Shown here piece by piece: positions 13,851 through 32,000 of a DNA stretch of 32,000 nucleotides. The notes beneath the pieces were generated by a model, which saw only the letters and a list, made by a program, of their open reading frames with translations, was not told the origin of the DNA and did no database searches. How positions within the stretch are numbered: the first letter of the stretch is position 1; the number at the start of each line of letters is the position of its first letter. Source of the stretch: Vibrio alginolyticus NBRC 15630 = ATCC 17749 (lineage in GTDB: Bacteria > Pseudomonadota > Gammaproteobacteria > Enterobacterales > Vibrionaceae); contig NC_022359.1 in the NCBI RefSeq assembly GCF_000354175.2, positions 300,001 through 332,000 on the forward strand, in the 5' to 3' direction. Both the position numbers and the translations under genes were made by a program.

Positions 13851-15146
13851 ATGAATGCCAAAAGACACATGAGCGAAGTTCCTATGATTCAAAGGGTAGC
13901 TGCCTATCTAGCGATACTGGTTGGTTACTTTTTCTATTGTTATAACTTTGTAATTATTGACTACGTACGCCCATACATCGTTGAAGCGTATGATGGTATT
14001 AGCCTGTCAGACACTGCCCAGTTCTATACATGGCAGTCGGTTGGTGCACTTATCGGTGCATTGAGCTGTGCTTGGTTCGCAACAAAATTTGGTAAGAAAT
14101 CCACTCTTATTACCATCACAGCCCTAAACGGTGGCGCAACGATCATCAATATGATGTTCACCGACTACACAACATGGGCAGCAATGCGTTTCATCATTGG
14201 TTTGTCACTGGGTGGTTACTTCACCGTGGCAGTAAGCCTAATGATCGGCCTATTTACGCCAACGGTACGTGGTAAGTTGACGGCATTCGCGTCTTCTATG
14301 TTCTCTGTAGCACTGATGGTAATGGGTGCGTATGCAGCATTTATTGCAAGCATTGATGCACCATGGGAAAGCCTAATGCTTGTTGGTGGTATCCCACCAT
14401 TGGCAGCCGCTGTTGTCATGATCTTTGTACTACCTAGCGACAGCAAAGTGATCGCTTACGGTGAAGAAGAGCAAGCAAAAGCAGAAGAATCAGATGCACC
14501 AGCGAAAAAAGGCTCTTGGGGCGAAATGCTAAGCAAGCCTTACCGTAAGATCACTCTAACGTGTCTATTACTGGCTGGCCTTAATTTCTACGGTTTCCAA
14601 TTCTTTGGTGGCTTCGTAACCACTTACCTACGTGATGTACGTATGTTCGACGGTGCAACCATCGGTCTCATCTTCTCTATCTCAGCATTTGGTTCACTGT
14701 TTGGTGCGTGGTTCTGGGGTTGGGTAGCTGACAAATTCGGTCGTAAGGTGAACGCATTTGGCTTCATCCTAGCGGGCATCATGGTTTCAATCTTCTTTGT
14801 TGCACCTGGCGACATGGTGATTGGCGGCCTAAACATGCTGGCTCTACTTGGTCTGATTTACAACTTCGGTCTGTCTTCTTCAGCGGTATGGGGTGGTTAC
14901 TTCTCAGAACTGTTCCCAGCACACCTACGTAGCTACGGCGCGGCGCTATTCCACGGCGGTCGTATCCTCGGTATGTGGGCACCAATGGTACTTATCTTCA
15001 TCCAAGAACGTACCGACCTACAAACCGCAATGTGGGGTTCACCAATCGTATGGATCCTTGCTGGTCTTCTATGGCTATCACTGCCAGAGACACTAAAAGG
15101 CGGCGTGTTCGATAAGAGCAAAAAAGCCGAAGCAGCAAAAGCGTAA
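13851..15146 (+). CDS. MFS transporter, substrate unknown
   Basis: 431 aa with about 12 hydrophobic segments and a charged central loop (EEEQAKAEESDAPAKK). MFS-like loop motifs: GKKSTL after TM2 and DKFGRK after TM8. The alternative internal starts at 13869/13884 are not excluded. Confidence 0.82.
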   Translation: MNAKRHMSEVPMIQRVAAYLAILVGYFFYCYNFVIIDYVRPYIVEAYDGISLSDTAQFYTWQSVGALIGALSCAWFATKFGKKSTLITITALNGGATIINMMFTDYTTWAAMRFIIGLSLGGYFTVAVSLMIGLFTPTVRGKLTAFASSMFSVALMVMGAYAAFIASIDAPWESLMLVGGIPPLAAAVVMIFVLPSDSKVIAYGEEEQAKAEESDAPAKKGSWGEMLSKPYRKITLTCLLLAGLNFYGFQFFGGFVTTYLRDVRMFDGATIGLIFSISAFGSLFGAWFWGWVADKFGRKVNAFGFILAGIMVSIFFVAPGDMVIGGLNMLALLGLIYNFGLSSSAVWGGYFSELFPAHLRSYGAALFHGGRILGMWAPMVLIFIQERTDLQTAMWGSPIVWILAGLLWLSLPETLKGGVFDKSKKAEAAKA

Positions 15147-15247
15147 CTGAATTTCAAAAACTCCGGCTGGCTCCCCGGCCGGATGAAAAAACTTAATTTC
15201 GAGTCCTGTTCCCAAAGCCGACTCGACAGCAAATAAGAGAGTTTATT

Positions 15248-16264
15248 ATGTCTAAATATCAAGAAGCGAAACGCGTTGTACGTGAATACTTCAGCGCAAT
15301 GGAAAACGCAACTCACGAGAACGTGGCAGAAGTACTAAAAGCACACACTTCAGAAGATTACCTATGGCGTGGTGTTTACCCATTCCGTGAGCAACAAGGC
15401 GCTCAAGCAGCGGCTGACGTTTTCTGGGCTCCTTTGATGAAATCAATGACTCGCATGCAGCGTCGTCAAGACATCTTCATCGGTGGTGAGAACGAAGTAA
15501 CATCAGGTGAAATCTGGGTAATGAGCATGGGTCACTTCATGGGTCTATTCGACGCTGAATACCTAGGCATGCGCCCAACTGGCAAAATCATGAACATCCG
15601 TTACGCAGAATTTAACTGTGTTGAAAACGGCAAGATCACTAAGACTGGCCTATTCCTAGACCTTCTAGGTGCAATGGACCAAGCGGGTTGTTACCCACTG
15701 CCACCATCAACAGGTAAGCACTTCGTATACCCTGGTCCTCGTAACCACGATGGTCTACTGTTCGAAGACGCAGCACCAGAAGAAGGCGTAGCAACACTAG
15801 CACTAGTGAACAAGATGGTTGATGACCTATCTGCACTAAACGACAGCGGCGCTATGGGTTGCCCACCAGAAGTTCTTGAGAAGAGCTGGTCTAAAGACAT
15901 GATCTGGTACGGTCCATGTGGTATCGGTGCGTCTTATACAATCCCTCGTTACCAACAGCAGCACCAATTGCCGTTCCGTAACAACCTAAAAGACAAGAAG
16001 TTTAACGGCCACGTATGTCGTTTCGCAGAAGGTAACTTCTCTTGTTTCTTCGGCTGGCCAAACCTATCTAACACGCCTATCGGTGGTTTCCTAGGTATGA
16101 CAGGTGGTGAAGTACGTGCAGACATGCAAGTGGTTGACGTTTACTACCGTGACGGCGACAAGCTATCTGAGAACTGGGTACTGATCGACCTTCCTTACTG
16201 GCTAAAACAGCAAGGTCTAGACGTGTTCGAGCGTACTCAACAGATCCTAAACCCTTCTCTATAA
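15248..16264 (+). CDS. Tandem SnoaL/NTF2-like (ester-cyclase-like) two-domain protein, paralogue 1
   Basis: Good RBS (AAGAGAG, 6 nt, ATG) and no signal peptide. Colinear similarity to ORF 28283..29278: GMRPTGKIMNIRYAEFNCVENGKIT..AMDQAG vs GIPATGKTLYLRYTEMVCVENDQIT..AMNQAG; MIWYGPCGIG vs FMWYGPAGIG; LSENWVLIDL...QQGLDVF vs LKENWVAIDI...QLGYDVF. The G..PTGK...R......I.E.W...D pattern occurs once per half, as in SnoaL-like cyclase folds. Confidence 0.75.
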   Translation: MSKYQEAKRVVREYFSAMENATHENVAEVLKAHTSEDYLWRGVYPFREQQGAQAAADVFWAPLMKSMTRMQRRQDIFIGGENEVTSGEIWVMSMGHFMGLFDAEYLGMRPTGKIMNIRYAEFNCVENGKITKTGLFLDLLGAMDQAGCYPLPPSTGKHFVYPGPRNHDGLLFEDAAPEEGVATLALVNKMVDDLSALNDSGAMGCPPEVLEKSWSKDMIWYGPCGIGASYTIPRYQQQHQLPFRNNLKDKKFNGHVCRFAEGNFSCFFGWPNLSNTPIGGFLGMTGGEVRADMQVVDVYYRDGDKLSENWVLIDLPYWLKQQGLDVFERTQQILNPSL

Positions 16265-16273
16265 GAAGTCCTA

Positions 16274-16363
16274 GGGGCGGATTGTCAACCCGCCTTTATG
16301 TTGCCTGAATCCCCTCTCGGTTCAGGCGACATGCTCCCAACTCGTGCCTCAAGGATGGGGCAC
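16274..16363 (+). other. Three consecutive GC-rich stem-loops in the spacer before the porin gene
   Basis: GGCGG (16276-16280) / CCGCC (16290-16294), followed by TTTATGTT. GCCTGAA (16303-16309) / TTCAGGC (16321-16327). GTGCCT (16344-16349) / GGGCAC (16358-16363). Confidence 0.5.
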
Positions 16364-16438
16364 AACCTCAAGATAGAACCCTTATTCAAAACGGGCATGA
16401 ACGCACGGTGGCTTTCTGCGCCCTGAATAATGAGATTG

Positions 16439-17527
16439 ATGATGAAAAAGTCGACCCTTTCTGCAGTGATTTTAGCAGCGCTTACTTCTAGCTCAGCCTT
16501 TGCTGCACACACTTTTGTTAATGACGCTGGCGACAGCCTAACCATCGATGGCCGTTTCGATCTTCGCTACCAAGACCGTGGCGGTGATGACAACGGCGAA
16601 TGGAACAGCGGCAGCTCACGTTTCGGTTTGAAAGGCCAAATGGGTCTGGATAACGGCTGGACTGGTTTCGGTCACGCGGAATGGGGCTACAACTCTGGCG
16701 CGAACGGCGACAACATTTACGACCGCTTGCTATACGCAGGTGTTGATCACGAAAAATACGGCAAGATTGCTGCGGGTACTAAACAGTGGTCTACCTTCTA
16801 CGACGTAGCATGGTACACCGATTTAGGTCGTGTATTCGGTACTCGTGGCTCAGGTGTTTACAACCTAGCTGACTGGGGTATCGCATCCGGTGCTGGTCGT
16901 GCGGAAAACTCAATTACGTACCGTAATTCAATTAATGAAAAAGTGAGCTACGGCTTTACTTACCAGACCACGCGTGAAGATGTTGCTCTAGCAAGCAATG
17001 CGACAGCCTCACTGAAAAACGGCATGGGTGCTTCGATCACTTACAAACCCGTTGATGGCGTAACACTGGGTGCGGCTTACCATCAAAATGAAGTTGCGGA
17101 TCTAGACGCAAGCGTGGTTGGCGTAGAAAACGGCGACAACATGCGCATCATGCTATTGGGCGCAAACTACAGCAACGGTGGCTTCTACGCAGGTGCGACT
17201 TTCCACGTTGGCGAAAACTGGGAAGCAGTGAGCCAAGGCGGTACGGACGTAATGTTCGATACCCTAGGTGGCGAAATCTACACTTACTACCACTTCGACA
17301 ACGGCTTGCGCCCAACGTTGAACTACAACTACATGGAGGATAGTGGTGACGAGACTCAAGGTTACGAGCGTAACTTGCTGATCCCTGGTCTTGAATACCA
17401 CTTCCAGAAGAACAAATTCCTAGTTTGGACTGAATACCAGTTCGACCTAGGTAAAGATCAGTACGATGGCAGCAAATTCGAAAACCGTGATGATCAATTC
17501 GCGGCAGGTATTCGCTACTACTTCTGA
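16439..17527 (+). CDS. General (OmpF/OmpU-like) trimeric porin
   Basis: Signal peptide MMKKSTLSAVILAALTSSSAFA. Alternating beta-strand pattern rich in G/Y/N/D. The C-terminal ...FAAGIRYYF ends in an aromatic residue, typical of outer-membrane beta-barrels. The start could be 16430, 16439 or 16442. Confidence 0.85.
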   Translation: MMKKSTLSAVILAALTSSSAFAAHTFVNDAGDSLTIDGRFDLRYQDRGGDDNGEWNSGSSRFGLKGQMGLDNGWTGFGHAEWGYNSGANGDNIYDRLLYAGVDHEKYGKIAAGTKQWSTFYDVAWYTDLGRVFGTRGSGVYNLADWGIASGAGRAENSITYRNSINEKVSYGFTYQTTREDVALASNATASLKNGMGASITYKPVDGVTLGAAYHQNEVADLDASVVGVENGDNMRIMLLGANYSNGGFYAGATFHVGENWEAVSQGGTDVMFDTLGGEIYTYYHFDNGLRPTLNYNYMEDSGDETQGYERNLLIPGLEYHFQKNKFLVWTEYQFDLGKDQYDGSKFENRDDQFAAGIRYYF

Positions 17528-17596: not shown

Positions 17597-18310
17597 CTAA
17601 GCAAAGTTATCTTGAAGCCAAGTAGCCATCACTTCACTAATAATTAAAGGCTGCTCAAGCGTAGATAGATGCCCACACTCAGGGATAACATGAAGTGTGA
17701 CGTTTGGGATGCATCTCTCCATGAGCAGATGATTGTCTAGCGGACAAAGCTTATCTTCTTTACCTGTTATCACCAACGTAGGAGCTTGAATGTCCGCCAA
17801 TAAAGGTCGAGCATCCGGGCGAGTTGCTAACGCTTTAGCATGTGCTTCAAATGCCTCCAAACCTACATTAACCGCCATGCCTTCGATACGCTCAGTTAAC
17901 GCTTTGTCTTGCAAACGGCTTGGATGAATCAGCACAGGCATCAGAGTGTCAGCCGTAATGCGTTCAAACTCACCACTTAACGCACGGCTAACCAGTGCAT
18001 CACGCTTTTGTGTCACCTCTGGCTTTTCATCTGCTGCATTGGTATCCATGAGGATCAAGCCTTTGACTCTGTTTGGCGCTTGACGGTACACCTCAAAGGC
18101 AAGAATCCCACCCATTGATAAGCCACCCAAGACAAACTCCTGCGGTGCGTCTTGCAACACTTTCTGCGCCAGCTGTTCCATTGACGGCAATGAGGCCAGC
18201 GTCGGGCATGAAGGCTCAACCCAACTTGGCAACGCTCGGTTGACTTCCTCAAACAATGTGCCATCACAAAGTAGTCCGGGTAGCCAAACTAACGAGGTGG
18301 GTTGCGTCAT
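17597..18310 (-). CDS. Alpha/beta-fold hydrolase (esterase/lactonase-like)
   Basis: Nucleophile elbow GLSMGG, a late ECGHLSTLEQP His motif, about 238 aa. Start moved to 18310: ATG one nt after the bicupin stop, with GGAG inside the upstream gene end (translational coupling). Confidence 0.82.
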   Translation of the reverse strand: MTQPTSLVWLPGLLCDGTLFEEVNRALPSWVEPSCPTLASLPSMEQLAQKVLQDAPQEFVLGGLSMGGILAFEVYRQAPNRVKGLILMDTNAADEKPEVTQKRDALVSRALSGEFERITADTLMPVLIHPSRLQDKALTERIEGMAVNVGLEAFEAHAKALATRPDARPLLADIQAPTLVITGKEDKLCPLDNHLLMERCIPNVTLHVIPECGHLSTLEQPLIISEVMATWLQDNFA

Positions 18311-18311: not shown

Positions 18312-19316
18312 TTATTCTCCTGCAAGCGGCTTTGGTTGATCAGACCCAAGAATGCAATACGTCAAACTATTACCCCGCAAGTTCGTCAGTGAATAAGACG
18401 CACCTTCTGGAACATTCAGCACATCACCGCGCGTTAAAACAACATTAGCTTGTTCGCCTTGATGCGTGAGGACCACCTCTGTATCGCCATCAAAGTTGAT
18501 AAGTACTTGTTTTTCTTCTCGGCAGTGTTGAGGAATCGAGCCACCTTCAGAAAGCTCATAAGCCATGATGCTCACTTCATCTTCACTCTTTACTTGGAAG
18601 TCATAACTCGCCAAAGGGTGACCCGTTAAGGCGTATTGTTTCACGTTGCTTCCGCTGAAATCGCCTTTGATTTCACGATAATCTTTTAGCAGAGCGACAA
18701 ATGGCATCATCTCTTCTGCGGTGTAGGTATCGAAGGTCGCGAGCTCTTCTTCGGTAAGCAGCGGCATCAATTCTGATTCTTGTGGCACCGGGTCGCCATT
18801 AATAGTGTCCACGAGTGTGCCATCGGCTTTGAGGTATAAACCATAACCTTGACTGTCTTTAATAACGTTTGGATGCCAAATAACGCCGCCACCTGAATCG
18901 TCGCCGCCAAGTACCGAGAACATAAAGCCGTAATCGCGGCCAACCACTTCAAATCCACGGAAGAGATTGGTTGGAATCGAGATGACGTCACCGTGAGACA
19001 ACACCGCCTCGTGTTCGCCATCGTTCCCCCAATAAAAACGGAACTGACCTTTGAACACCAAGAAAAGCTCGGCGGTACGATGAGAGTGCAACGAATTTTT
19101 GATGCCCGGCGGTTGGCCTGCGGCACCAATATTAAAGCCCGCCGTATCGCGAATATGAACATGCTGACGACTGCTCTCTGCCACCCCAGCACCGATAATG
19201 CAGAAGTTATCTTTCAGATCACTGCCTGGCGTGCGCGCATCAATAAACGCACTCGTACCCGGAATCAGTTCCATGTAGCGGACCAGGTTATTATTCATTT
19301 TAGATTGTAGAGTCAT
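18312..19316 (-). CDS. Bicupin protein with one canonical metal-binding cupin motif
   Basis: GIKNSLHSHRTAELFLVFKG fits cupin motif 1, G-X5-H-X-H-X3-E-X6-G, exactly. A second, degenerate cupin-like half lies near the C-terminus (...GGSIPQHCREEKQVLINFDGD...GDVLNVPEG). RBS AAGGA, 6 nt, ATG. Confidence 0.78.
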   Translation of the reverse strand: MTLQSKMNNNLVRYMELIPGTSAFIDARTPGSDLKDNFCIIGAGVAESSRQHVHIRDTAGFNIGAAGQPPGIKNSLHSHRTAELFLVFKGQFRFYWGNDGEHEAVLSHGDVISIPTNLFRGFEVVGRDYGFMFSVLGGDDSGGGVIWHPNVIKDSQGYGLYLKADGTLVDTINGDPVPQESELMPLLTEEELATFDTYTAEEMMPFVALLKDYREIKGDFSGSNVKQYALTGHPLASYDFQVKSEDEVSIMAYELSEGGSIPQHCREEKQVLINFDGDTEVVLTHQGEQANVVLTRGDVLNVPEGASYSLTNLRGNSLTYCILGSDQPKPLAGE

Positions 19317-19367: not shown

Positions 19368-19421
19368 GTTAGTTACAAGCCTAAAGTTAGTTACAGACCG
19401 AAAGTGTGTTACAGACCTAAA
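19368..19421 (-). repeat. 18-bp tandem repeat x3 spanning the SDR stop codon and the downstream spacer
   Basis: GTTAGTTACAAGCCTAAA / GTTAGTTACAGACCGAAA / GTGTGTTACAGACCTAAA. On the coding strand each unit reads ..(L/F) G L TAA, giving three in-frame stops 18 nt apart. Confidence 0.9.
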
Positions 19422-20143
19422 GGTCGCCCACCATCAACCGCGATGGTATTGCCTGTCGAGAAGGTCAGAACCTCTGCCGCGGCGTACACGGCTTGAGCAA
19501 CCTCTTCATCATTGGCTAAACGCTTGAGCGGTGTGGATTGTTCTTGTTGGTTACGCCAAGCATCGTCCAAGCCTTTGACAAATTCGGTGTCGACAAGCCC
19601 AGGCGCTACAGCCAAAACGCGAATCTCAGGGGACAATGCGCGAGCTAAAGAACGGGTCATGTTTTCTGCGGCAGATTTACTCGCGCAATAAGCAATGTTG
19701 CTGCCCATCGCAGTCTGTGCCGCGATAGAAGTAATGTTCACCACACAACCATTGGCTTGCTGGAGCAAAGGCTCAAACGCTCGAACCATGGCAAAAGGCG
19801 CACGGACGTTCACTTGGAAAATTTGATCAAATAATTGGTCATCCAAACTTTGCAGATCGGCATGCGCGACGAACTTCGTCATCCCCGCACAATTGACCAA
19901 CAAATCTAGCTTGTCGCTCATCTCACTGACTTGATGTTTAAGCTGCTCAATCGCACTAGAATCTGCCACGTTCAGTTTGAATGCCAAATGCTCGTTACGT
20001 GGTAACGAAGAAAGCACGTCGTCGGCTGCTTTCTGATTACTGTTGTAAGTCAGAATTACGCGATATCCAGATTGAGCTAGCTTGCGACAAATGGCGGCAC
20101 CCAGTCCGCCACTGCCGCCTGTGACTAAGGCAAGTTTCGACAT
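19409..20143 (-). CDS. Short-chain dehydrogenase/reductase (SDR)
   Basis: TGGSGGLG cofactor motif and catalytic YCASK (YxxxK). Start moved from 20212 to 20143: ATG one nt after the upstream stop, protein begins MSKLALVTGGSGGLG. Confidence 0.88.
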   Translation of the reverse strand: MSKLALVTGGSGGLGAAICRKLAQSGYRVILTYNSNQKAADDVLSSLPRNEHLAFKLNVADSSAIEQLKHQVSEMSDKLDLLVNCAGMTKFVAHADLQSLDDQLFDQIFQVNVRAPFAMVRAFEPLLQQANGCVVNITSIAAQTAMGSNIAYCASKSAAENMTRSLARALSPEIRVLAVAPGLVDTEFVKGLDDAWRNQQEQSTPLKRLANDEEVAQAVYAAAEVLTFSTGNTIAVDGGRPLGL

Positions 20144-20144: not shown

Positions 20145-21437
20145 TTACGCCTCTTCCACTTTGCCTTTGTAACGGCGTACACGAATATCTGCTTGCTCTT
20201 TGTGACCTGCAAAGCCTTCTAGTGCACACAAGCGAGAGCAGTATTCACCCACTTTTAAGGATGCTGCTTCCGTTACTCGCTGGTAAGTACAAGTCTTGAT
20301 GAACTTACCTACCCAAAGACCACCGGTGTATCGCGCCGCTTTCTTCGTTGGCAGTGTATGGTTGGTACCAATACATTTATCGCCGTAAGAAACGTTGGTT
20401 TCACGACCTAGGAACAAGGCACCGTAGTTGGTCATGTTAGCTAGGAAGTATTTAGGATCTTCCGTCATCACTTGAACGTGTTCAGAAGCGATATCGTCTG
20501 CTACTTCCACCATTTCTTCGTAACTATCACATACGATCACCTGTCCGTAATCTGCCCACGCTTTACCCGCAACTTCCGCCGTTGGGAGAATGGTTAACTG
20601 ACGTTCAATCTCTTTGATGGTCTCTTGTGCAAATGTCTCGCTGTTGGTCAACAAGACAGCTGGAGAGTTGTAACCGTGCTCGGCCTGCCCAAGCAAGTCC
20701 GCCGCTGCCAATTCTGGGTCACAGCCTTTCTCATCAGCAATGACTAAGGTTTCCGTTGGGCCTGCAAACAAGTCGATACCGACGCGACCAAACAACTGAC
20801 GTTTTGCCTCTGCTACAAATGCGTTACCCGGCCCTACAATCATATCGACCGGTGCAATAGTCTCCGTCCCCAGAGCCATTGCACCTACCGCCTGAACACC
20901 ACCGAAGCAATAGATTTCATCCGCACCCGCCATTGCCATCGCAGCGACAATCGCCACATTCGGCTGGCCATTAAACGGTGGCGCACAAGCAATAACACGT
21001 TTTACGCCCGCGACTTTCGCCGTCAGTACACTCATGTGAGCGGATGCAACCAATGGGTATTTACCGCCAGGGATGTAACAACCCACGCTGTTGACTGGAA
21101 TATTTTTATGCCCCAGTACCACACCAGGCATGGTTTCTACTTCGACGTCTTTCATTGAGTCACGCTGAATTTGAGCAAAGTTTCGAACTTGTTGCTGAGC
21201 GAACTCGATATCATGACGAGTCGATTCATCAAGCGCATCCACACAGGCTTGGATTTGCTCTTCTGACAGGCGGAATTGCTCCGGCGACCAGTTATCAAAC
21301 TTTTCAGACAACTCACGTACAGCGCTATCACCTTTCGATTCAATATCAGCAAGAATGTTTTCAACAATCTGACGCACTTTTGCGTCGTTTGATGCTGATG
21401 CTTCTTCAGTGATTCCGTTTTTTAAAATGCGTGCCAT
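20145..21437 (-). CDS. Histidinol dehydrogenase-like (HisD family) NAD-dependent alcohol-to-acid dehydrogenase, not in a his operon
   Basis: 430 aa with HisD-type blocks: [48 protein letters not shown]. No other histidine-biosynthesis genes are nearby. RBS AGGAGAA. Confidence 0.85.
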
Positions 21438-23708: not shown

Positions 23709-23752
23709 TTGACTTGTTACTTTAATGTTTTATTTTGGATTCGTATGCAAAA
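23709..23752 (+). promoter_or_regulatory. TRAP operon promoter with overlapping operator, site B
   Basis: TTGACT (23709-23714), 16-bp spacer, TATTTT (23731-23736). Operator TTTTGGATTCGTATGCAAAA (23733-23752) starts inside the -10. Confidence 0.65.
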
Positions 23753-24904: not shown

Positions 24905-25468
24905 ATGAAGTGGTTTCGCTTACTAGACAAATACCTAGAACCTACCCTTATCGTTATCGCGATCTCGACGATGACAACTTTACTGTGCTTGCAAATCACA
25001 CTACGCCTATTTGACGCAACGATCGCGTGGGCTGAAGAGCTGGCTCGTTATTTATTCGTATGGGCGATGTACCTGAGCATCAGCTACTGTATCCGAGATG
25101 ATCGACACATCCGCATTCGTGTGTTCATCGATAAACTTCCGGGCAATTGGACGCAATTCAGTTTGATTGTCTCTGATCTTATCTACCTTGCCTTTAGTGC
25201 CACTGTCGCCTGGTTTGGATTTAAGGTTATAAACCGCAGCCTGCAACTCGGTCAGATTGCACCCGCAATGGAAATTCCTATTGCGTGTTTGTATGCCTCT
25301 GTTTTAGTTTGCGCACTATTAAGCTGCGCGCGCCTAGTGACAAGCATTTATCAACGTGTGAACGCGTGCTCCACCAACAATGAACGAGTTCGCTTTTCTC
25401 GCCAACGCTATCGCCATATCAAAGCAAAGTATCGTACTTCTAACCGACTATTGGAGTTTAACGCATGA
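24905..25468 (+). CDS. TRAP transporter small permease (DctQ type)
   Basis: Four hydrophobic segments. GGAGG, 5 nt, ATG at 24905. Its stop overlaps the M-subunit start (ATGA). Confidence 0.85.
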   Translation: MKWFRLLDKYLEPTLIVIAISTMTTLLCLQITLRLFDATIAWAEELARYLFVWAMYLSISYCIRDDRHIRIRVFIDKLPGNWTQFSLIVSDLIYLAFSATVAWFGFKVINRSLQLGQIAPAMEIPIACLYASVLVCALLSCARLVTSIYQRVNACSTNNERVRFSRQRYRHIKAKYRTSNRLLEFNA

Positions 25469-26745
25469 CGTCTGCACTTTTGTTTGGCAGCTTTGGTCTG
25501 CTTCTGCTCATTGGCGTTCCGGTCGGTATTGCTCTGGCGGCAGCCAGTATGGTCGCGATATTAAGCCTGCCATTCCTTAACATCGAGTTTTTAGTCCAAG
25601 GAATGGTAACAGGGCTCGACTCCTTCCCTCTCCTCGCCGTCGTTCTTTTTACCTTAGCAGGTAACCTTATGAGCCAAGGAGGGATCTCAAAACGATTATT
25701 GCATGTGGCGGAGGTCTTCTTTGGCCACTTTACTGGCGGGCTTGGTATCGTGGCCATTGTGGCGTGTATGTTCTTCGCATCCATCTCTGGTACAGGGTCT
25801 GCCACTGTTGCCGCTATCGGCCTGACGATGATTCCTTCGATGGTGAAGAAAGGCTACGACCGCAGCTTTGCAGGTGCTTTAATCGCGTCCTCCGGCGGAA
25901 TTGGCGTCATTATTCCACCCTCTGTGGTGATGATCGTCTACGCGATCACTGCTGAAGTCTCCGTCACTAAGATGTTCATGGCGGGAATCATTCCTGGCTT
26001 GGTCGTCGGTATGGTATTGATCGGCTATTGTCTAATTGTGTCAAAAATGCGGGGCTACACAGGTAACGAGCGCAAAGCGACCTGGGCAGAGCGTCTTGAT
26101 GCGTTAAAAGAAGCCAGTTGGGCAATGCTACTACCCGTGATCATTCTCGGCGGTATCTATTCTGGTATCTTCACACCTACCGAATCAGCCGCCATTGGTG
26201 TGCTCTATGGCTTATTCTTTGGCATGTTTGTTTATAAAGAGCTCAAACCAGCGCAAGTGGTGAAAATCATTCTAGAGTCGTCACTGTTAGTTGGCGCTGT
26301 GCTCGTCATTGTGGGTGCGTCCGTGACGTTTGGCCGCATATTGACCCTAGAACGTCTGCCGACTGAAATTGCTCAGTTCATTCTATCGATTACCGAAAAC
26401 AAACTTCTGATACTGCTTTGCATCAATGTCCTGTTGTTGCTCGTCGGTACCTTTATGGAAACGCTGGCAGCGATTGTTATTCTCACACCAATTCTGTTAC
26501 CCATTACGTCAGCACTCGGCATGGATCCCGTTCATTTTGGTATCGTGATGATCGTGAACTTGGCCATTGGCTTTGTTACGCCTCCTCTGGGAGCCAACCT
26601 GTTTATGGCAAGTCAGGTAGGCAAAGTACCGATAGAGTCGCTCTCTAAAGCCATCATGGGTTGGATTGGAGCAATGATAGTGGCCTTGATGTTGATTACC
26701 TTCATCCCTGCCATCTCGCTATCATTACCTGCGCTTTTATCCTGA
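25465..26745 (+). CDS. TRAP transporter large permease (DctM type)
   Basis: 426 aa polytopic protein with DctM-like blocks (ISGTGSATVAAIG, FVTPPLGANLF). Confidence 0.9.
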   Translation: MTSALLFGSFGLLLLIGVPVGIALAAASMVAILSLPFLNIEFLVQGMVTGLDSFPLLAVVLFTLAGNLMSQGGISKRLLHVAEVFFGHFTGGLGIVAIVACMFFASISGTGSATVAAIGLTMIPSMVKKGYDRSFAGALIASSGGIGVIIPPSVVMIVYAITAEVSVTKMFMAGIIPGLVVGMVLIGYCLIVSKMRGYTGNERKATWAERLDALKEASWAMLLPVIILGGIYSGIFTPTESAAIGVLYGLFFGMFVYKELKPAQVVKIILESSLLVGAVLVIVGASVTFGRILTLERLPTEIAQFILSITENKLLILLCINVLLLLVGTFMETLAAIVILTPILLPITSALGMDPVHFGIVMIVNLAIGFVTPPLGANLFMASQVGKVPIESLSKAIMGWIGAMIVALMLITFIPAISLSLPALLS

Positions 26746-26815: not shown

Positions 26816-26844
26816 TATCTACTTCCGATTTAATAAAAAAGCCT

Positions 26845-26864: not shown

Positions 26865-27186
26865 GGAGAATTTGAAAGATATAAGGATAATTGACACCAA
26901 AATAGCTGAATATTAGCGATAAAGTCTATTTGGGTGCCTTGATCTGCATGATTATCAGTTTTGGCTTAATCATTTATTTCCATTCAAACAGATCAAAATA
27001 AATTAAGCGATTAAAAAACAATAAGATATTAGGAAATTCATACAAAAAACTTTGACCTCCTTTCTTATTAACACGTCTCGATAAGAGATAGCTTCCATCT
27101 CTCCTGTACTTTTTTAGTTTATTTTCCGCTCAATTGTTAAAAATCTGATCATCAGCACGCTATTTAAACAATCGAAAAACAATCCG

Positions 27187-27230
27187 TTGACAAAATGGCA
27201 ACATGATATATTTTGAATACGTAATCAAAA
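27187..27230 (+). promoter_or_regulatory. Promoter of the NTF2-NTF2-SSS operon with overlapping operator, site D
   Basis: TTGACA (27187-27192), 16-bp spacer, TATTTT (27209-27214). Operator TTTTGAATACGTAATCAAAA (27211-27230). The geometry is identical to site B. Confidence 0.65.
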
Positions 27231-27258
27231 CATAATTATTCAATTACGGAGGTGATTT

Positions 27259-28233
27259 ATGGCCATGGTTGGCTTCGATGAAAAGTGGCGTGATTTTCCC
27301 GACTACATTCTTGGTATCACAAAAGAGATTTGGGAAGACCGAGGTTTAAACACCTTAGAACACTACTACTCTCCCGACATTGTTGTGCGTACTCCACTCT
27401 CTATCGTTCAAGGAAACGAAGGGGTGATCAGTGCAACAATGGCGACACTGGCCGAGTTTCCCGATCGCACGCTATATGGCGAAGACGTCATTTGGTCAGG
27501 CACCCCGGAACAAGGCATGCTTTCTTCTCATCGAATCATCTCTACTGCAACACACAGTGGCAACGGCTTCTATGGGCAAGCTTCGAACCGCAAGCTTCGT
27601 TTCCGTATTATCGCAGATTGCCATGCTATCAATAACCAAATCAATGACGAATGGTTGGTTCGCGATCAAGCCGATATCGCGAAACAACTGGGCATGACGT
27701 CAGAAGAGTTTGCACGCCAACAAATCGAATTTGAAGGTGGCGTGGAATCAAGCCCATTTCCGTTCACTCCTGAAGTCGACATTCCTGGACCTTATTTGGG
27801 CGTAGGCAACGACAACGAATATGGTCAGCGCTACGAAGCAATTCTCAGAAGCCTTATGAATGCCGAGTTCTCTATAGTACCGAAAGAGTACGACCGCGCT
27901 TGCATCGGCGAATACACTGGCGGTCAAACTGCCCTATCACACTCGGAAGTCGATCATTTTTGGATGGCACTTCGTGCGTCTTTCCCAAATGCTCAATTTA
28001 CCGTTCACCATCGTATTGGCCGAGATGACGACATGATGTCACCACGCGCTGCAATTCGATGGTCTTTGCACGGTAAGCATGAGGGATATGGGATGTTTGG
28101 TAAGCCTTCGGGGAAAGAGGTTTACATCATGGGGATCAGCCACGCTGAGTTTGGCCCTTGGGGTCTTCGTCGCGAATTCACTTTGTTTGACGAGACCGCA
28201 ATCTGGAAGCAAATCCTGCTACAGCAAGGCTAA
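27259..28233 (+). CDS. Tandem SnoaL/NTF2-like (ester-cyclase-like) two-domain protein, paralogue 2 (more divergent)
   Basis: RBS GGAGGTGA. Each half carries the W....GL..L...Y.PD / FPD...........SHR..../ G..(S/P).(R/G)K......I....INDEWLVRD type pattern. The second half has FPNAQFTVHH ... GKPSGKEVYIMGISHAEF ... FDETAIWKQI. Confidence 0.72.
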   Translation: MAMVGFDEKWRDFPDYILGITKEIWEDRGLNTLEHYYSPDIVVRTPLSIVQGNEGVISATMATLAEFPDRTLYGEDVIWSGTPEQGMLSSHRIISTATHSGNGFYGQASNRKLRFRIIADCHAINNQINDEWLVRDQADIAKQLGMTSEEFARQQIEFEGGVESSPFPFTPEVDIPGPYLGVGNDNEYGQRYEAILRSLMNAEFSIVPKEYDRACIGEYTGGQTALSHSEVDHFWMALRASFPNAQFTVHHRIGRDDDMMSPRAAIRWSLHGKHEGYGMFGKPSGKEVYIMGISHAEFGPWGLRREFTLFDETAIWKQILLQQG

Positions 28234-28282
28234 CGGCTGATTAAACACTATTCATTCAAATCACAGACAGTAAGGAAGCAAC

Positions 28283-29278
28283 ATGTCACTCAACATCATC
28301 GAACAGTTCTACCAGAACTACTTCAACGCCGCAGATAAAGAGCAAAAACAGGCCGCTCTGCAAGCTTTGAACCCTGACGTAAAATGGTGCGTGGCGCACC
28401 CTGTGAACGATCTCAATGGCCCAGATGCAACCCACGAATCTTTCCTCTCACCACTTGTTAATGCTTTGCCTGATGCCGAACGCCGACCAATGATTGTGAT
28501 GCACGGCGAATACGAAGGCCGTACTTGGTACAACTCTACTGGTTACTTTATCGGTACGTTTGAACAGTCACTGTTTGGCATCCCTGCAACAGGGAAAACA
28601 CTCTACTTACGTTACACCGAAATGGTGTGTGTGGAGAACGACCAAATCACCGAATCATACATGATTCCAGACTTCATCGATGCGATGAATCAAGCGGGAA
28701 GCAACCCTCTTAGAAAAAGCTTAGGCCACGATGGCTTAGTCCCTTCTCCTGCGACGTCAAACGGTATCCAACATTCTGTTGTGTCTCTGAAAGAAAGTGA
28801 GAAGAGCGCCCAATTAGTCGAAGATATGTTGTCTTGCTTGGGTCGTTTTGATGGTCAAGATCTCTTCTCGATGGATTTAGAAAACTACTGGCACAGTGAC
28901 TTTATGTGGTACGGCCCAGCAGGTATTGGCACTACGCGCGGTATCAAAGGTTTCCGTAACCACCATCAAGCACCATTCGTGTTCGCCTTCCCTGATCGAA
29001 GTGTCGATATTGAGGTCAATTTTTTGGCCAAAAATGACTACGTATCCACAGGTGGTTGGCCGCATATGCATGGTACTCATACTGGTCACAGTGGCTGGCT
29101 CGGTCTTGCTCCGACAGGAAAACACATCGAACTTCGCGTTATGGACATTTGGCGACGCGAAGGCGATTTACTGAAGGAAAACTGGGTGGCGATCGACATC
29201 GTTCATATCCTGCTGCAACTTGGATACGACGTATTTGCACAAATGAAAGAACAGTTAGAAGGACCTAATTATGCATGA
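28283..29278 (+). CDS. Tandem SnoaL/NTF2-like two-domain protein, paralogue 3 (closest to paralogue 1)
   Basis: See paralogue 1 for the colinear blocks. RBS AAGGAAG. The stop overlaps the SSS start by 8 nt. Confidence 0.75.
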   Translation: MSLNIIEQFYQNYFNAADKEQKQAALQALNPDVKWCVAHPVNDLNGPDATHESFLSPLVNALPDAERRPMIVMHGEYEGRTWYNSTGYFIGTFEQSLFGIPATGKTLYLRYTEMVCVENDQITESYMIPDFIDAMNQAGSNPLRKSLGHDGLVPSPATSNGIQHSVVSLKESEKSAQLVEDMLSCLGRFDGQDLFSMDLENYWHSDFMWYGPAGIGTTRGIKGFRNHHQAPFVFAFPDRSVDIEVNFLAKNDYVSTGGWPHMHGTHTGHSGWLGLAPTGKHIELRVMDIWRREGDLLKENWVAIDIVHILLQLGYDVFAQMKEQLEGPNYA

Positions 29279-31004
29279 GTTTGGCGCACTTAACTGGAGC
29301 ATCCTTGGCGGATACATTGCCCTAACGTTAGTACTGGGCGCAGTAATTGGTAAGCGAGTCACTTCTGCGAGCCAATTCGCCTTGGGTGACAAAAACATTC
29401 CTTGGTGGGCGATCGGTATTTCAGTCGTTTGTACTTACGTCAGTGCCATGTCGTTTCTTGGTGGGCCGGCTTGGTCATACAAAGAAGGCCTATCGGTAAT
29501 CGCGATTCACCTCAATTACCCGCTCGTGATCTTCTTCATCGTGGCTGTATTCATGCCGTTTTTCTACAATAACGGTTTAACCTCTATATACGAGTATCAA
29601 GAACGACGCTTCGGTAAGGCTTCACGACTGACATTGTCGTTTATCTTCCTTATCAAACAAGCATTGAGCTCGGCAGCGGTACTCTATGCGACAGCAATGA
29701 TTTTAGAGTTCATCACAGGTATCGACGTGATGTACTGCATCATGATCGTCACTGCAATTGCCCTTATCTACACCGTAATGGGCGGTATCGCGGCTGTCAT
29801 TTGGACTGATGTGATTCAAGCTGTGATCTTGTTTATTGGCGCATTCATCATCATCGAAGCCGTATGGAATGGCATGCCTGCCCCGATGACGGAGGTAATG
29901 GCAGAACTCAAAGCGAAAGGAATGACAGATGCCCTACAGACAAGTTTTGACCTAAGCCAAGTAACGACTGTATGGGCTGGCGTTATCGCAATGACGATGT
30001 TCCACACCACCGTGTATGGCGGTAACCAAATGATGGTACAGCGCTGTATGGCCGCGAAAAACATGGGCGATGCGAAAAAGGCAATGTTGATGATGGGCTA
30101 CGTGGCCTTCTTTATTTACTTTGTCTTTATCTTGCTTGGCGTCCTGTTCAACGCTTATTACGACGGTAAAGAGTTTGAAAACGGCAACACCATCATTCTT
30201 CATTATGCGAGTGAATATGGAATGCCAGGCTTGATGGGCATCATTGCCGCTGCGATTCTGGCGGCAAGTATGTCGAGTCTCGATTCCGCATTTAACTCAA
30301 TGGCGACCGTTTCTGTGGCTGACTTTTACAAACGCTTCTACAAGCAAAACGAGTCGGAAGAGCATTACTTAAAGGTATCGCGTTTCTTCACGGTGGCGTG
30401 GGCGATTTTGGTCATCATTCCAGCGATCATGTTTGCCACCAGCACAGGCTCGGTACTGGAAGTGCTGAGTAAGGCAGGCTCTTACTTTGTCGGTGCGAGC
30501 TTCTGTATGTTCGTCCTTGGTTTCTACTCAAAACACATTACGGAAAAAGGCTTGTTAATTGGCGTTGCTGCTAGCTTCTTGGTGATCTGGTATGTAGCCG
30601 TTGCGACCGATATTGCGTGGCCTTGGTATTGCGTGATTGGCGTCCTTGTGAATGCCGTTGTCGCTTACATTGCTAGCCTTCTCCTGACGGGTAAACAAGA
30701 TGAAATGCATCTTTACACAGTGAAAGGCCAGCAAGCGGAATATGCTCGTCTAAATAAACCAATCAAGGAAGATGGTTGGTATGTCGTTCCCGGCAAAATC
30801 GATGCTCCATGTTATGGTTTACTAGTGATGTTTGTATTCTCTCTCGTGATGCTTTGGGGGATCAACGCGTTTACCGACAACGCTCCTATGCTGATTAACT
30901 TTATGCGTGGCTGCTCTATTCTTGTCGCTACCGCTTGCATCGGATACATGGGGTATTCACTCCTCTCCCCGAAACGTAAAGTTGCAGTCAAACAAGCAAA
31001 TTAA
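29271..31004 (+). CDS. Sodium:solute symporter (SSS) family transporter 2, paralogue of 11970..13511
   Basis: Shares long blocks with the sdaA-linked SSS: TYVSAMSFLGGPAW, IHLNYPLVIFF, GLTSIYEYQERRFG, GGIAAVIWTD. It carries a longer C-terminal extension (577 vs 513 aa). Confidence 0.87.
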   Translation: MHEFGALNWSILGGYIALTLVLGAVIGKRVTSASQFALGDKNIPWWAIGISVVCTYVSAMSFLGGPAWSYKEGLSVIAIHLNYPLVIFFIVAVFMPFFYNNGLTSIYEYQERRFGKASRLTLSFIFLIKQALSSAAVLYATAMILEFITGIDVMYCIMIVTAIALIYTVMGGIAAVIWTDVIQAVILFIGAFIIIEAVWNGMPAPMTEVMAELKAKGMTDALQTSFDLSQVTTVWAGVIAMTMFHTTVYGGNQMMVQRCMAAKNMGDAKKAMLMMGYVAFFIYFVFILLGVLFNAYYDGKEFENGNTIILHYASEYGMPGLMGIIAAAILAASMSSLDSAFNSMATVSVADFYKRFYKQNESEEHYLKVSRFFTVAWAILVIIPAIMFATSTGSVLEVLSKAGSYFVGASFCMFVLGFYSKHITEKGLLIGVAASFLVIWYVAVATDIAWPWYCVIGVLVNAVVAYIASLLLTGKQDEMHLYTVKGQQAEYARLNKPIKEDGWYVVPGKIDAPCYGLLVMFVFSLVMLWGINAFTDNAPMLINFMRGCSILVATACIGYMGYSLLSPKRKVAVKQAN

Positions 31005-31013
31005 TCTTCTTTA

Positions 31014-31052
31014 CGTAGATACTGTACGTCCAACAAACGGACAGTATCTACG
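31014..31052 (+). terminator. Strong stem-loop after SSS-2
   Basis: Perfect 12-bp inverted repeat CGTAGATACTGT (31014-31025) / ACAGTATCTACG (31041-31052). No T-run follows. Confidence 0.45.
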
Positions 31053-31083
31053 CACTAGATCTAGTGCTAGCTCAAAGCAAACC

Positions 31084-31110
31084 AAATGGGTTAACCCACA
31101 TTTTGCTTTT
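31084..31110 (+). terminator. Weak terminator-like hairpin with a T-run
   Basis: The palindrome TGGGTTAACCCA (31087-31098) is flanked by AAA and CATTTTGCTTTTT. Confidence 0.4.
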
Positions 31111-31221
31111 TAATACTCCAAAGCCATTATTCTACTTAGGATACCCCGTCAGAACATTTATGAATACGTACCTATTTATGCTAGTCTTATGACCTCAATT
31201 ACTGGCAACTAAGTTTTATTC

Positions 31222-32000
31222 ATGAAATCAATTAAACACGTAGTCACATCAAAAGATGTGGCAAAGATGGCAGGCGTCTCTCAATCTACTGTATCGCGCG
31301 TGTTTGTTCCGGGTAGCTCAGTATCCGAAAAGACCAAGCAAAAAGTCTTTGAAGCGGCTAAAGCCCTTAACTACCGCCCTAACGCCTTTGCACGTAGCCT
31401 GACCACAAACGAATCGAAATTGATAGGTTTGGTGTTTCCTGATGCGGATTACCCTATCCATATGAAAACACTGCAATTAATTTCCAGTGAGTTACAGAAA
31501 AAAGGTTATTCTGCCGTATTGATTCCATGGCAAGTGGATGAAGAAGAGGGCCACTCAATCCCAAATATCTTCCAGTATCGCGTCGATGGTGTCATTGCTG
31601 CTTCCGCAACCTTCAATAAGTCCCTTTATGAAGAATGTGAAGAGTTTAATATCCCAATTGTTCAATACGCACGAGTTGTTGAAGGTACTAGGAGTAGCTA
31701 CGTTATCAGTGACAACTACGAAGCAGGCCAACAAGCTGCGCAACTTCTGCACAAAAGTGGCGTGAAGAACGCGGTTTATTTGACGGGAGAAGTGCCAACC
31801 TTTACGAATGACGAACGTCAAAGCGGCTTCTGCTCTGAATTTGAAGACCTAACCGGCAAGACGCCACGCATCATTGAAGCCAGCTATGACTACGCGAGCT
31901 CACTTGATAAAGTCCGTGCCATACTGGCAGACAAAAATCGGCCTGAAGCGGTGTTCTGTGCAACCGATAACCTTGCGATGGCGGTCATGGATATCGCCCG
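31222..32000 (+). CDS. LacI-family transcriptional regulator 2 (3' end beyond the window)
   Basis: Not in the ORF track because it has no stop inside the window. Frame 1 from ATG 31222 reads MKSIKHVVTSKDVAKMAGVSQSTVSRVFVPGSSVSEKTKQKVFEAAKALNYRPNAFARSL..., open to nt 32000, ending ...AVFCATDNLAMAVMDIA. Confidence 0.88.
   Translation, partial: MKSIKHVVTSKDVAKMAGVSQSTVSRVFVPGSSVSEKTKQKVFEAAKALNYRPNAFARSLTTNESKLIGLVFPDADYPIHMKTLQLISSELQKKGYSAVLIPWQVDEEEGHSIPNIFQYRVDGVIAASATFNKSLYEECEEFNIPIVQYARVVEGTRSSYVISDNYEAGQQAAQLLHKSGVKNAVYLTGEVPTFTNDERQSGFCSEFEDLTGKTPRIIEASYDYASSLDKVRAILADKNRPEAVFCATDNLAMAVMDIA

Follow-up and report, generated by a model that had tools for sequence, protein, structure and literature searches.

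Which compound is degraded by the products of a crowded block of transporter and enzyme genes on chromosome 2 of Vibrio alginolyticus, and do these genes form one system? The window studied here, a stretch of 32,000 nucleotides for which exact-sequence look-ups returned the accessions AGV19177-AGV19186, had been described in a preliminary way as carrying, from position 13851 onwards, a catabolic locus that fits no pathway with a name. Pfam and NCBIfam scans over all large open reading frames (ORFs) of the window recovered each of the listed genes at or near the same coordinates (Table 1); the porin gene is real, but starts at 16430 rather than at 16439. We consider it reasonably probable that the block is a single repressor-controlled, horizontally shared catabolic island of ca. 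21 kb, which would serve the use of a small polar marine, probably algal, metabolite. Repressor-controlled catabolic islands are familiar as a class, and the superfamilies that make up this one are known; its pathway, its substrate and three of its enzyme groups are undescribed. The latter are a third subfamily of HisD-type dehydrogenases, a one-metal bicupin, and the double-NTF2 proteins, which fall into six stable orthogroups. Searches of Pfam, NCBIfam, PDB sequences and full-text literature gave no characterised orthologous pathway and no paper naming the gene set, in agreement with the preliminary description. Curated NCBIfam equivalog models gave no match above cut-off for the NTF2 proteins, the bicupin, the short-chain dehydrogenase/reductase (SDR), the alpha/beta hydrolase or the aldolase.

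Conservation and distribution of the island

Homologues of Sno3, one of the three double-NTF2 proteins (Sno1 to Sno3) encoded in the block, were aligned and one genome per species was then scanned, which gave 217 related stretches. The best 80 loci were fetched; they stem from Vibrio, Photobacterium, Colwellia, Thalassotalea, Pseudoalteromonas, Glaciecola, Paraglaciecola, Halieaceae, Microbulbifer, Endozoicomonas and Hyphomonas. Co-occurrence was counted in the 55 Sno3-anchored loci with full 10-kb flanks. A gene for the second symporter of the SSS family (SSS2) adjoins that of Sno3 in 54 of them, and genes for an HpcH aldolase (47 loci), a LacI regulator (46), a HisD-like dehydrogenase (45), the bicupin (44) and the alpha/beta hydrolase (at least 40) are nearly as regular. 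Amidohydro_2 and Meth_synt_2 proteins are encoded in 28 and 21 loci, and a tripartite ATP-independent periplasmic (TRAP) transporter in four (nine of all 80 fetched gammaproteobacterial loci). In Vibrio-type layouts a flank of 10 kb on either side of Sno3 misses the genes for the major facilitator superfamily (MFS) transporter, the porin and the alpha/beta hydrolase, so counts for these three are lower bounds; the shortfall was corrected by bicupin-anchored look-ups in Photobacterium ganghwense, V. kanaloae and Endozoicomonas.

The core that emerges comprises the HisD-like dehydrogenase, an SDR, the bicupin, an esterase-type alpha/beta hydrolase and a class II pyruvate aldolase, together with two to six paralogues of the double-NTF2 type, a transporter and a regulator, either LacI or ROK. 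It co-travels, with rearranged gene order, in Vibrionaceae, Alteromonadales, Halieaceae, Endozoicomonas, Rhodobacterales and a Bacteroidota locus that is headed by a ROK regulator and SusC/SusD. Rhodobacterales and Stappiaceae, reached via bicupin homologues, carry the core with a TRAP and/or a CUT1-type ATP-binding cassette (ABC) system. The smallest version, in Endozoicomonas, consists of genes for the HisD-like enzyme, SDR, bicupin, hydrolase, aldolase, LacI, SSS symporter and two double-NTF2 proteins. The P. ganghwense locus has all island genes of the window except those for the TRAP system and the porin, and members of the island are also present in V. campbellii, V. owensii and the harveyi group. 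In many versions outside Vibrio, genes for a MetE-like zinc methyltransferase (Meth_synt_2) and a cog3618-type lactonase (Amidohydro_2) are present in addition.

Because an operator is shared within the block (see below) and synteny extends over three major lineages (Gammaproteobacteria, Alphaproteobacteria, Bacteroidota), the genes form one functional unit, as had been supposed before; the uptake transporters, the repressors and the terminal pyruvate aldolase argue that the unit is catabolic, again as first proposed. The Vibrio version looks like a mosaic. The genes for Sno2 and the TRAP system are nearest to alphaproteobacterial versions, and those for Sno1, Sno3 and SSS2 to other gammaproteobacterial ones. 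The proximity of Sno2 to alphaproteobacterial copies, along with a resolvase gene that follows the second LacI gene just past the window end in the source genome (L001, 14094-14738), suggests this mixed origin.

The island is confined almost wholly to marine bacteria. Among its carriers are pathogens and symbionts of corals, Gammaproteobacteria from sea ice or associated with blooms, roseobacters and flavobacteria, and it would represent a carbon route that hundreds of marine species have preserved intact. In view of this wide marine spread, the compound concerned is likely an important currency of marine dissolved organic matter that has been overlooked.

Operators and LacI-type repressors

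The two LacI-type regulators and the common operator of the preliminary description were both recovered. With up to two mismatches allowed, the palindrome TTGNATWCGWATNCAA has seven matches in the window as compared to 0.60 expected, and none of 100 shuffled sequences reaches seven. Four of the matches are intergenic (O1 to O4, Table 1; the operator sites of the locus are also written TTGGATWCGWATGCAA). The position of O1, between the divergent hisD-like and hpcH genes, is also occupied in orthologous Vibrionaceae loci. Exact operator copies occur at equal relative positions in orthologous Vibrio and Photobacterium loci, and further copies are found in some Halieaceae, Pseudoalteromonas and Hyphomonas loci. 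The promoter-like sites upstream of dctP and sno2 (23709 and 27187) are the two best sigma-70-like sites of the region, and each of them ends where an operator starts. This abutment is the geometry of a repressor roadblock, with predicted DNA binding.

Similar to the LacI/GalR proteins that control sugar operons, the island repressors combine an N-terminal helix-turn-helix (HTH) with an effector domain of the periplasmic-binding-protein fold. There are two such paralogues in the locus, and the 16-bp palindrome with central CG, to which they are predicted to bind, lies over the -10/+1 region of the target promoters. Unlike known LacI/GalR systems, the first repressor of the island apparently starts at a conserved AUU, AUA or AUC codon. 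In the window, translation probably begins at the non-canonical ATT at 22591, 12 codons ahead of the first ATG. Read in frame upstream, the peptide I-KAKVTSIDVAK supplies the missing part of HTH helix 1, no ATG, GTG or TTG is present between the preceding stop codon and 22627, and a ribosome-binding site (AAGGAG) lies 8 nt upstream of the ATT. The start is ATT, ATA or ATC in 23 orthologous loci, always after (T)AAGGAG(G), and changes downstream of it are synonymous. Public gene calls give the protein in its shortened ATG form. The non-canonical start was noted at 22573-22630 of the window and in loci L001-L003, L007-L024, L053 and L089-L091.

The gap between dctM and sno2 (26746-27258), in which O3 and O4 are located, is unusually long (513 nt) and AT-rich. 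Rfam gave no match there or anywhere else in the window, and ORFs of 80 amino acids or more are absent from the gap.

The HisD-like dehydrogenase

The most conserved protein of the set is the HisD-like four-electron alcohol dehydrogenase, with 74-85% identity within Gammaproteobacteria and 66-67% to the proteins of Alphaproteobacteria and Bacteroidota. In a PDB sequence search its nearest solved relative is HpsN (8v35, 413 bits), with which it shares the PF00815 fold and ca. 50% identity over 411 residues. Equivalents of the catalytic pair Glu318-His319 and of the zinc-loop Asp352 of HpsN are present: the Glu-His pair, the GDK zinc loop and the GQAEHG motif are conserved, and ASEHVQV and a 14-letter segment align with ASEHLEV and FGDKTSGPNHVLPT of 8v35. 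Enzymes of the HpsN type carry the motif G-R-Y-A/S-H, in which His126 binds zinc or the sulfonate, whereas HisD has G-S-A-P-L (PMC11382572). The island enzyme reads G-K-Y-P-L, with Leu at the His126 position as in HisD. The kinship with HpsN that was hinted at earlier thus holds for the overall relationship, but not for sulfonate chemistry of the 2,3-dihydroxypropanesulfonate (DHPS) type, since the clade lacks the sulfonate-binding His and a nearby desulfonation gene.

Histidinol dehydrogenase proper was rejected as an assignment as well. The motif is GKYPL and not GSAPL, and the gene is part of a LacI-controlled catabolic operon, not of a histidine biosynthesis operon; the protein passes the domain-level model TIGR00069 (470 bits), but fails the full-length equivalog NF010343 (259 versus 647). 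Because the sulfonate- and zinc-binding His is replaced by Leu, we assign the enzyme on motif evidence to a third subfamily that is neither HisD nor HpsN. From the conserved HpsN-type catalytic residues, the enzyme is expected to oxidise a vicinal hydroxy or amino alcohol in a four-electron reaction, with a substrate of the form R-C(OH or NH2)-CH2OH that by analogy would be oxidised to the acid.

A side observation concerns the rate of divergence. The HisD-like protein is 66-85% identical across lineages as compared to 26-48% for the bicupin, hydrolase and aldolase (window versus L004, L006 and L087-L094), which would reflect either an unusually strong constraint or a different transfer history.

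The double-NTF2 proteins

By their occurrence in the loci compared, the double-NTF2 proteins are the most faithful companions of the island. Sno1 has orthologues in 50 of the 80 loci, with one copy per locus, and the family as a whole falls into six orthogroups in the fetched loci, each single-copy per locus; most non-Vibrio loci carry four of them. Sno2 is 59-64% identical to alphaproteobacterial copies versus ca. 30% to those of Halieaceae and Thalassotalea. Polar residues are invariant in both domains. With a double-NTF2 query, 131 clusters were found at E <= 1e-30 in a library of 1.84 billion representatives. Two of these clusters are natural four-domain fusions, P0286 (692 amino acids) and P0290 (711 amino acids), in which a Sno2-type unit precedes a Sno3-type unit; the same order is found in the adjacent sno2 and sno3 genes (27259-29278). 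In view of these fusions, Sno2 and Sno3 probably act together, as a hetero-complex or in consecutive steps.

A PDB sequence search with Sno3 gave marginal matches only. Its AlphaFold2 (AF2) model, with a predicted local distance difference test (pLDDT) score of 89, shows two NTF2 barrels, for which Foldseek returned Lsd19 and MonB (E = 2e-9) as best matches, at 11-14% identity and a TM-score of 0.3-0.39 over the whole chain, followed by single-domain SnoaL-type proteins; identities in all matches are 11-20%. Similar to the island proteins, Lsd19 and MonBI-MonBII are built from double NTF2-like alpha+beta barrels, in one chain or as an obligate pair, and general acid-base catalysis in a cone-shaped pocket is the common theme. 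In contrast to the polyether enzymes, to which identity is low, the Sno proteins belong to a catabolic and not a polyketide-biosynthetic context, have conserved residues in both domains, form several stable paralogues per locus and occur in four-domain fusions. The fold comparison that had been recommended earlier, done with the Sno3 and bicupin models, returned only generic NTF2 and bicupin folds and allowed no transfer of function. Assignment as a SnoaL-type polyketide cyclase was rejected: PF07366 is matched, but the proteins have two domains and ca. 330 amino acids versus a single domain of ca. 140, and no polyketide synthase (PKS) gene is nearby. We infer that the NTF2 proteins may supply the missing dehydratase, isomerase or ring-opening activities.

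Bicupin, SDR, hydrolases, aldolase and methyltransferase

The earlier label of a metal-binding bicupin holds for the N-terminal cupin, which has the metal motif H77-x-H79-x3-E83 in the alignment and an invariant Arg (R120) where a fourth His is usual, but not for the C-terminal cupin, which is degenerate. A PDB sequence search with the bicupin was empty. A profile search against the PDB gave weak cupin matches only, including quercetinases, 3-hydroxyanthranilate dioxygenase and acireductone dioxygenase, and Foldseek with the AF2 model (pLDDT 92) found generic bicupins only (MncA, oxalate decarboxylase, YxaG). In the 92-nt gap between the SDR and bicupin genes (19317-19408), short direct repeats were observed on the plus strand, with CCTTGTTGT present about three times and (A)GTTAGTTACA twice. 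The SDR itself had no NCBIfam match above cut-off.

The gene of the alpha/beta hydrolase begins 1 nt past the bicupin stop codon. The protein, whose true start is M14 (codon 14), has a GLSMGG nucleophile elbow, its nearest solved structure is a short-chain carboxylesterase (4uhc, 95 bits), and sub-threshold NCBIfam matches are to PcaD, MenH, BioH and HsaD; it is predicted to be of the esterase or lactonase type. The best sub-threshold matches of the HpcH aldolase are GarL and HpaI. In the Oceaniovalibus cluster (L087) it is replaced by an aldolase of the non-homologous RraA-like family, which includes the 4-hydroxy-4-methyl-2-oxoglutarate and 4-carboxy-4-hydroxy-2-oxoadipate (HMG/CHA) aldolases. 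This swap points to a 4-hydroxy-2-oxoacid as the aldolase substrate, possibly with a tertiary C4.

Among the proteins added in other lineages, the Amidohydro_2 member is nearest to cog3618 L-fucono-1,5-lactonase (88 bits), and no PDB match to LigI or LigJ was obtained at E <= 0.001. The MetE-like protein keeps the zinc motif HxC...E...C of MetE, which speaks for a role in moving a methyl group onto a thiol and so removing it from the substrate. Two Rhodobacterales loci (L088, 11002-11616; L092, 10951-11571) have, between the bicupin and MetE-like genes, a gene for an S-adenosylmethionine-type methyltransferase of ca. 205 amino acids, which is odd for a catabolic cluster; L088 also has genes for an amidase and a second HisD-family protein.

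Transporters and serine dehydratase

SSS2 is the most conserved transporter of the island by gene neighbourhood, being near-universal in Gammaproteobacteria within the fetched flanks, and its gene overlaps sno3 by 8 nt. The TRAP system has its three subunits in a single operon, and DctP scores 262 with TIGR00787 versus a cut-off of 175. In the Oceaniovalibus cluster DctP and DctM are 46% and 61% identical to the Vibrio proteins; from its distribution, we regard the TRAP transporter as a genuine accessory that is shared with Alphaproteobacteria. The solved TRAP binding proteins nearest to DctP are 4p9k/4pak, 4pdh and 7bbr, and 8t9t is among the further matches. The porin, absent from the versions of P. 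ganghwense, V. kanaloae and Endozoicomonas, is by the same comparison a local addition. For the MFS transporter, NCBIfam similarity to symporters of aromatic acids, sialate and galactonate is only weak; the protein was encountered in close relatives only (its gene adjoins that of Sno1 in P. ganghwense) and is probably a local, lineage-specific accessory. The picture of four envelope-crossing systems packed around the enzymes was overstated in this respect.

To the left of the MFS gene lie genes that had been overlooked, for an Fe-S L-serine ammonia-lyase (serine dehydratase) and a first SSS symporter (SSS1). SSS1 is a paralogue of SSS2 with 39% identity to SSS2-type genes elsewhere. The pair is also present in P. 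ganghwense (L089, 15037-17960), and a serine dehydratase homologue stands beside the cluster both there and in Halieaceae (L004, 17385-18785). The serine dehydratase and SSS1 genes (10588-13511) are probably accessory island members.

Proposed pathway and candidate substrate

The conserved proteins can be arranged in a tentative sequence of steps. Uptake would proceed via the SSS symporter and in Vibrionaceae also via the DctPQM system, the MFS carrier and the porin. The double-NTF2 proteins may then catalyse acid-base steps on a ketone or enol scaffold (hydrolysis, tautomerisation, dehydration or retro-aldol cleavage). The HisD-like enzyme would carry out an NAD-dependent four-electron oxidation of a hydroxymethyl group to a carboxylate, the SDR a redox step, and the bicupin a metal-dependent ring cleavage or isomerisation. 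An ester or lactone could be cleaved by the alpha/beta hydrolase, to which other lineages add the MetE-like zinc methyltransferase and the cog3618 lactonase, and a retro-aldol reaction of HpcH would finally convert a 4-hydroxy-2-oxoacid to pyruvate and an oxo-acid or aldehyde. Judged by these steps, the substrate would contain -C(OH)-CH2OH or -C(NH2)-CH2OH; at least one of the forms that are transported would bear a carboxylate, and in most cases there would also be an O-methyl, ester or lactone function.

As leading substrate we put forward, as a guess only and an unlikely one, the mycosporine-like amino acid (MAA), 4-deoxygadusol and gadusol family. These compounds share a 2-methoxy-cyclohexane-1,3-dione core that includes a C(OH)(CH2OH) centre, and by analogy this core would use every conserved part of the island. 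Enzymes of the NTF2 fold, such as PhzA/B, ketosteroid isomerase and scytalone dehydratase, act on cyclohexenone imines and enols, and could therefore strip MAAs of their amino-acid substituents. The double-NTF2 paralogues would hydrolyse imine and enaminone C-N bonds, in the reverse of PhzA/B-type chemistry, with release of glycine, serine or threonine; release of serine would explain the adjacent serine dehydratase. The HisD-like enzyme would oxidise the C5 hydroxymethyl group of 4-deoxygadusol, and the bicupin could use oxygen to cleave the 2-methoxy-1,3-diketone or reductone ring at the C2-C3 bond. Alternatively, an NTF2 dehydratase might first aromatise the ring to 4-O-methylgallate. Cleavage would give CHA or its methyl ester, from which the methyl group would be removed by the esterase, or elsewhere by the MetE-like methyltransferase, and the class II aldolase would split CHA to pyruvate and oxaloacetate.

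A review reports for Vibrio harveyi the conversion of shinorine and porphyra-334 to mycosporine-glycine and 4-deoxygadusol (PMC3083659). This conversion, the occurrence of the island in the same harveyi clade as the host, and the serine dehydratase beside the cluster in three lineages are circumstantial evidence for MAAs. That the island is the first known catabolic pathway for MAAs and gadusols, the main marine ultraviolet sunscreens, is a rather doubtful proposal; if true, it would open the sink side of the marine sunscreen cycle. The substrate is directly testable, because the Vibrio host can be cultured and is amenable to genetics, the repressor-operator switch is clean and the TRAP binding protein is soluble.

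Several points weigh against this assignment and, in part, against the common pathway. The LacI and ROK regulators, CUT1-type ABC system, SusCD and YidK-like SSS symporter are typical of carbohydrates, and would suit a sugar or sugar acid no less than a conjugate of a cyclitol with an amino acid. The serine dehydratase is found within 10 kb on either side in only 7-8 of the 80 loci, three of the four alphaproteobacterial loci examined have no aldolase in the cluster, and the SDRs of different lineages are ca. 27% identical and may not be orthologous. The bicupin, being without a close characterised relative, cannot be placed by its sequence among dioxygenases as opposed to isomerases or decarboxylases. 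Finally, the Vibrio version lacks the methyltransferase and the lactonase, so that the steps assigned to them are dispensable or are carried out in another way.

Alternative substrates and related pathways

The most serious rival, which we regard as possible though still on the doubtful side, is the oxidative, non-phosphorylative breakdown of a sugar, an O-methyl sugar, a sugar lactone or a 2-keto-3-deoxy-ulosonic acid. Candidates would be 3-deoxy-D-manno-oct-2-ulosonic acid (Kdo), 5-O-methyl-Kdo and 3-deoxy-D-lyxo-hept-2-ulosaric acid (Dha) from prasinophyte scales, or O-methyl and O-acetyl sialic-type acids. The SDR would form a lactone that is opened by the alpha/beta hydrolase or the cog3618 lactonase, the HisD-like enzyme would convert the CH2OH group to a second carboxylate, the bicupin or an NTF2 protein would replace the dehydratase, and HpcH would cleave the 2-keto-3-deoxy acid. 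The SDR, the hydrolase (the cog3618 lactonase in relatives) and the HpcH aldolase are indeed present, all below curated equivalog cut-offs. The LacI/ROK regulators, the CUT1-type ABC system with its sugar-type binding protein, SusC/SusD and an SSS symporter nearest to the YidK-type model are a better fit to such a route. The closeness of the Amidohydro_2 protein to L-fucono-1,5-lactonase and of the aldolase to GarL point the same way, the MetE-like methyltransferase would suit an O-methyl sugar, and the structures 4p9k/4pak, 4pdh and 7bbr related to DctP have ligands that we take to be small hydroxy or sugar acids. On the other hand, no version examined encodes a member of the known sugar-acid dehydratase families, a kinase, a mutarotase or a glycoside hydrolase; for the window, the reported lack of enolase, IlvD/Edd and UxuA dehydratases and of kinases was reproduced in the Pfam and NCBIfam scans of all large ORFs. 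A simple ulosonic acid needs an aldolase alone, which would leave two to six NTF2 paralogues and the bicupin over. The characterised NTF2 enzymes among the fold matches of Sno3 act on carbocyclic ketones, enols or epoxides, and we know of no NTF2-fold enzyme that acts on an open-chain or pyranose sugar. Routes for L-ascorbate, apiose, anhydrogalactose, KduI/KduD substrates, inositol and ectoine were considered and rejected, their signature enzymes being absent from the gene sets found.

The closest described logic is that of the O-methylgallate/protocatechuate-4,5 lower pathway, a family-level likeness that the preliminary description had missed, and by analogy the lower half of the island appears to work in the same way. 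In the syringate/3-O-methylgallate route a MenH/COG0596-type alpha/beta hydrolase (DesC, MgaC) removes the methyl ester from the ring-cleavage product, the SnoaL-like MgaD is the proposed tautomerase, and an amidohydrolase-fold hydratase and the CHA aldolase finish the sequence (PMC12314914). The two resemble each other in the order of the chemistry and in several superfamilies, and the island would likewise combine optional O-demethylation, metal-dependent ring cleavage, an alpha/beta hydrolase as candidate esterase, an NTF2 protein as putative tautomerase, in relatives an Amidohydro_2 member, and a class II aldolase that forms pyruvate and an oxo-acid, the aldolase being RraA-like in one alphaproteobacterial island (PMC12314914). 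However, the island has a bicupin instead of a LigAB-, DesZ- or GalA-type dioxygenase, which no ORF encodes, mostly an HpcH and not an RraA-like aldolase, double-domain NTF2 proteins in two to six paralogues, and a HisD-like alcohol dehydrogenase and SDR upstream. Its methyltransferase is MetE-like, not of the GcvT type (LigM/DesA) or a Rieske system (VanAB), and its regulators and transporters are of the carbohydrate type. The LigJ/GalB hydratase and the LigI lactonase are absent from the window. Since the defining dioxygenase, tautomerase and hydratase families are absent, the island stands outside this pathway.

That the substrate itself is a methoxylated aromatic acid of the syringate, O-methylgallate or gallate type, degraded by a non-orthologous protocatechuate-4,5/gallate lower pathway, seems to us quite improbable. 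The parallels to DesC/MgaC, MgaD, LigI/LigJ (Amidohydro_2) and LigK/GalC (the RraA-like protein of L087) are in its favour at the family level (PMC12314914), but no version carries a LigAB, DesZ or GalA dioxygenase, a PrpF-type tautomerase or an aromatic-acid regulator. HisD-family enzymes need a hydroxyl or amino group beside the alcohol (PMC11382572), which benzylic alcohols do not offer. Moreover, carbohydrate-type regulators and transporters are unusual for aromatics, and the Amidohydro_2 protein resembles a sugar lactonase more closely than it does LigI or LigJ.

That the sub-operons are unrelated neighbours by accident of gene order on chromosome 2 is very improbable and, for the core, refuted. 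The porin and MFS genes are not conserved with the rest, the operator search of the window gave no convincing match upstream of the MFS gene, and promoter-like sites are not enriched in overall number, all of which would fit such an accident; against it stand the operator common to four intergenic sites, the tight or overlapping junctions within operons and the persistence of the core across three major lineages despite rearranged order. A biosynthetic polyketide-like cluster was likewise rejected, with no PKS or non-ribosomal peptide synthetase but with uptake transporters and repressors present. Least probable, and largely refuted, is the degradation of DHPS or another C3-sulfonate by an HpsN orthologue (cysteinolate catabolism was rejected with it), for although HpsN is the nearest solved structure and the isethionate-binding 8t9t is among the sulfonate TRAP binding proteins matched, the motif is GKYPL instead of GRY[AS]H with Leu for His126, and neither in the window nor in the related loci examined was SuyAB, Xsc, CuyA, SlcD or a sulfite exporter found.

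Gene content and borders

Table 1. Predicted genes, operators and promoter-like sites of the island in the 32,000-nucleotide window.
Feature	Position	Strand	Domains, scores and remarks
Fe-S L-serine ammonia-lyase (SDH alpha+beta)	10588..11994	-	TIGR00720, 653 bits, above cut-off
SSS symporter 1 (SSS1)	11970..13511	-	PF00474
MFS transporter	13851..15146	+	PF07690
Sno1, double NTF2/SnoaL	15248..16264	+	PF07366 + PF12680; orthogroup B
General porin (Porin_4)	16430..17527	+	PF13609
Small Ser-Asp-His alpha/beta hydrolase	17597..18310	-	PF00561 + PF12697
Bicupin	18312..19316	-	Cupin_2 + Cupin_1
Classical SDR oxidoreductase	19409..20143	-	adh_short_C2, 173 bits
HisD-family four-electron alcohol dehydrogenase	20145..21437	-	PF00815, 481 bits
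Operator O1, TTGGATACGAATGCAA	21487..21502		divergent hisD-like/hpcH region; exact palindrome match
HpcH/HpaI class II pyruvate aldolase	21727..22476	+	PF03328, 114 bits
LacI 1	22591..23583	+	LacI HTH + Peripla_BP; ATG ORF 22627-23583
Promoter-like site TTGACT-16-TATTTT with O2	23709..23750	+	upstream of dctP
Operator O2, TTGGATTCGTATGCAA	23735..23750		upstream of dctP, abutting promoter-like site
DctP	23851..24846	+	PF03480
DctQ	24905..25468	+	PF04290
DctM	25465..26745	+	PF06808
Operator-like site O3, AAGCATTCGTATGCAA	26847..26862		before sno2; two mismatches to palindrome
Promoter-like site TTGACA-16-TATTTT with O4	27187..27228	+	upstream of sno2
Operator O4, TTGAATACGTAATCAA	27213..27228		upstream of sno2, abutting promoter-like site
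Sno2, double NTF2/SnoaL	27259..28233	+	PF07366
Sno3, double NTF2/SnoaL	28283..29278	+	PF07366, 88 bits; anchor orthogroup
SSS symporter 2 (SSS2)	29271..31004	+	PF00474
LacI 2	31222..32000	+	runs past window end; 335 amino acids in source genome

The island had been taken to start at 13851. Because SSS1 and the L-serine dehydratase occur as a pair in P. ganghwense and the dehydratase abuts the Halieaceae cluster, its left border probably lies at ca. 10588; the right border is probably beyond the window end. Positions 1-10510 belong to an unrelated maltodextrin/glycogen region with the C-terminus of a pullulanase, an amylase, MalM, LamB and a GlgX-like enzyme. Within this region, 1386-3002 encodes a protein of 538 amino acids in which an N-terminal CBM_4_9 domain is joined to an Endonuclease I domain.

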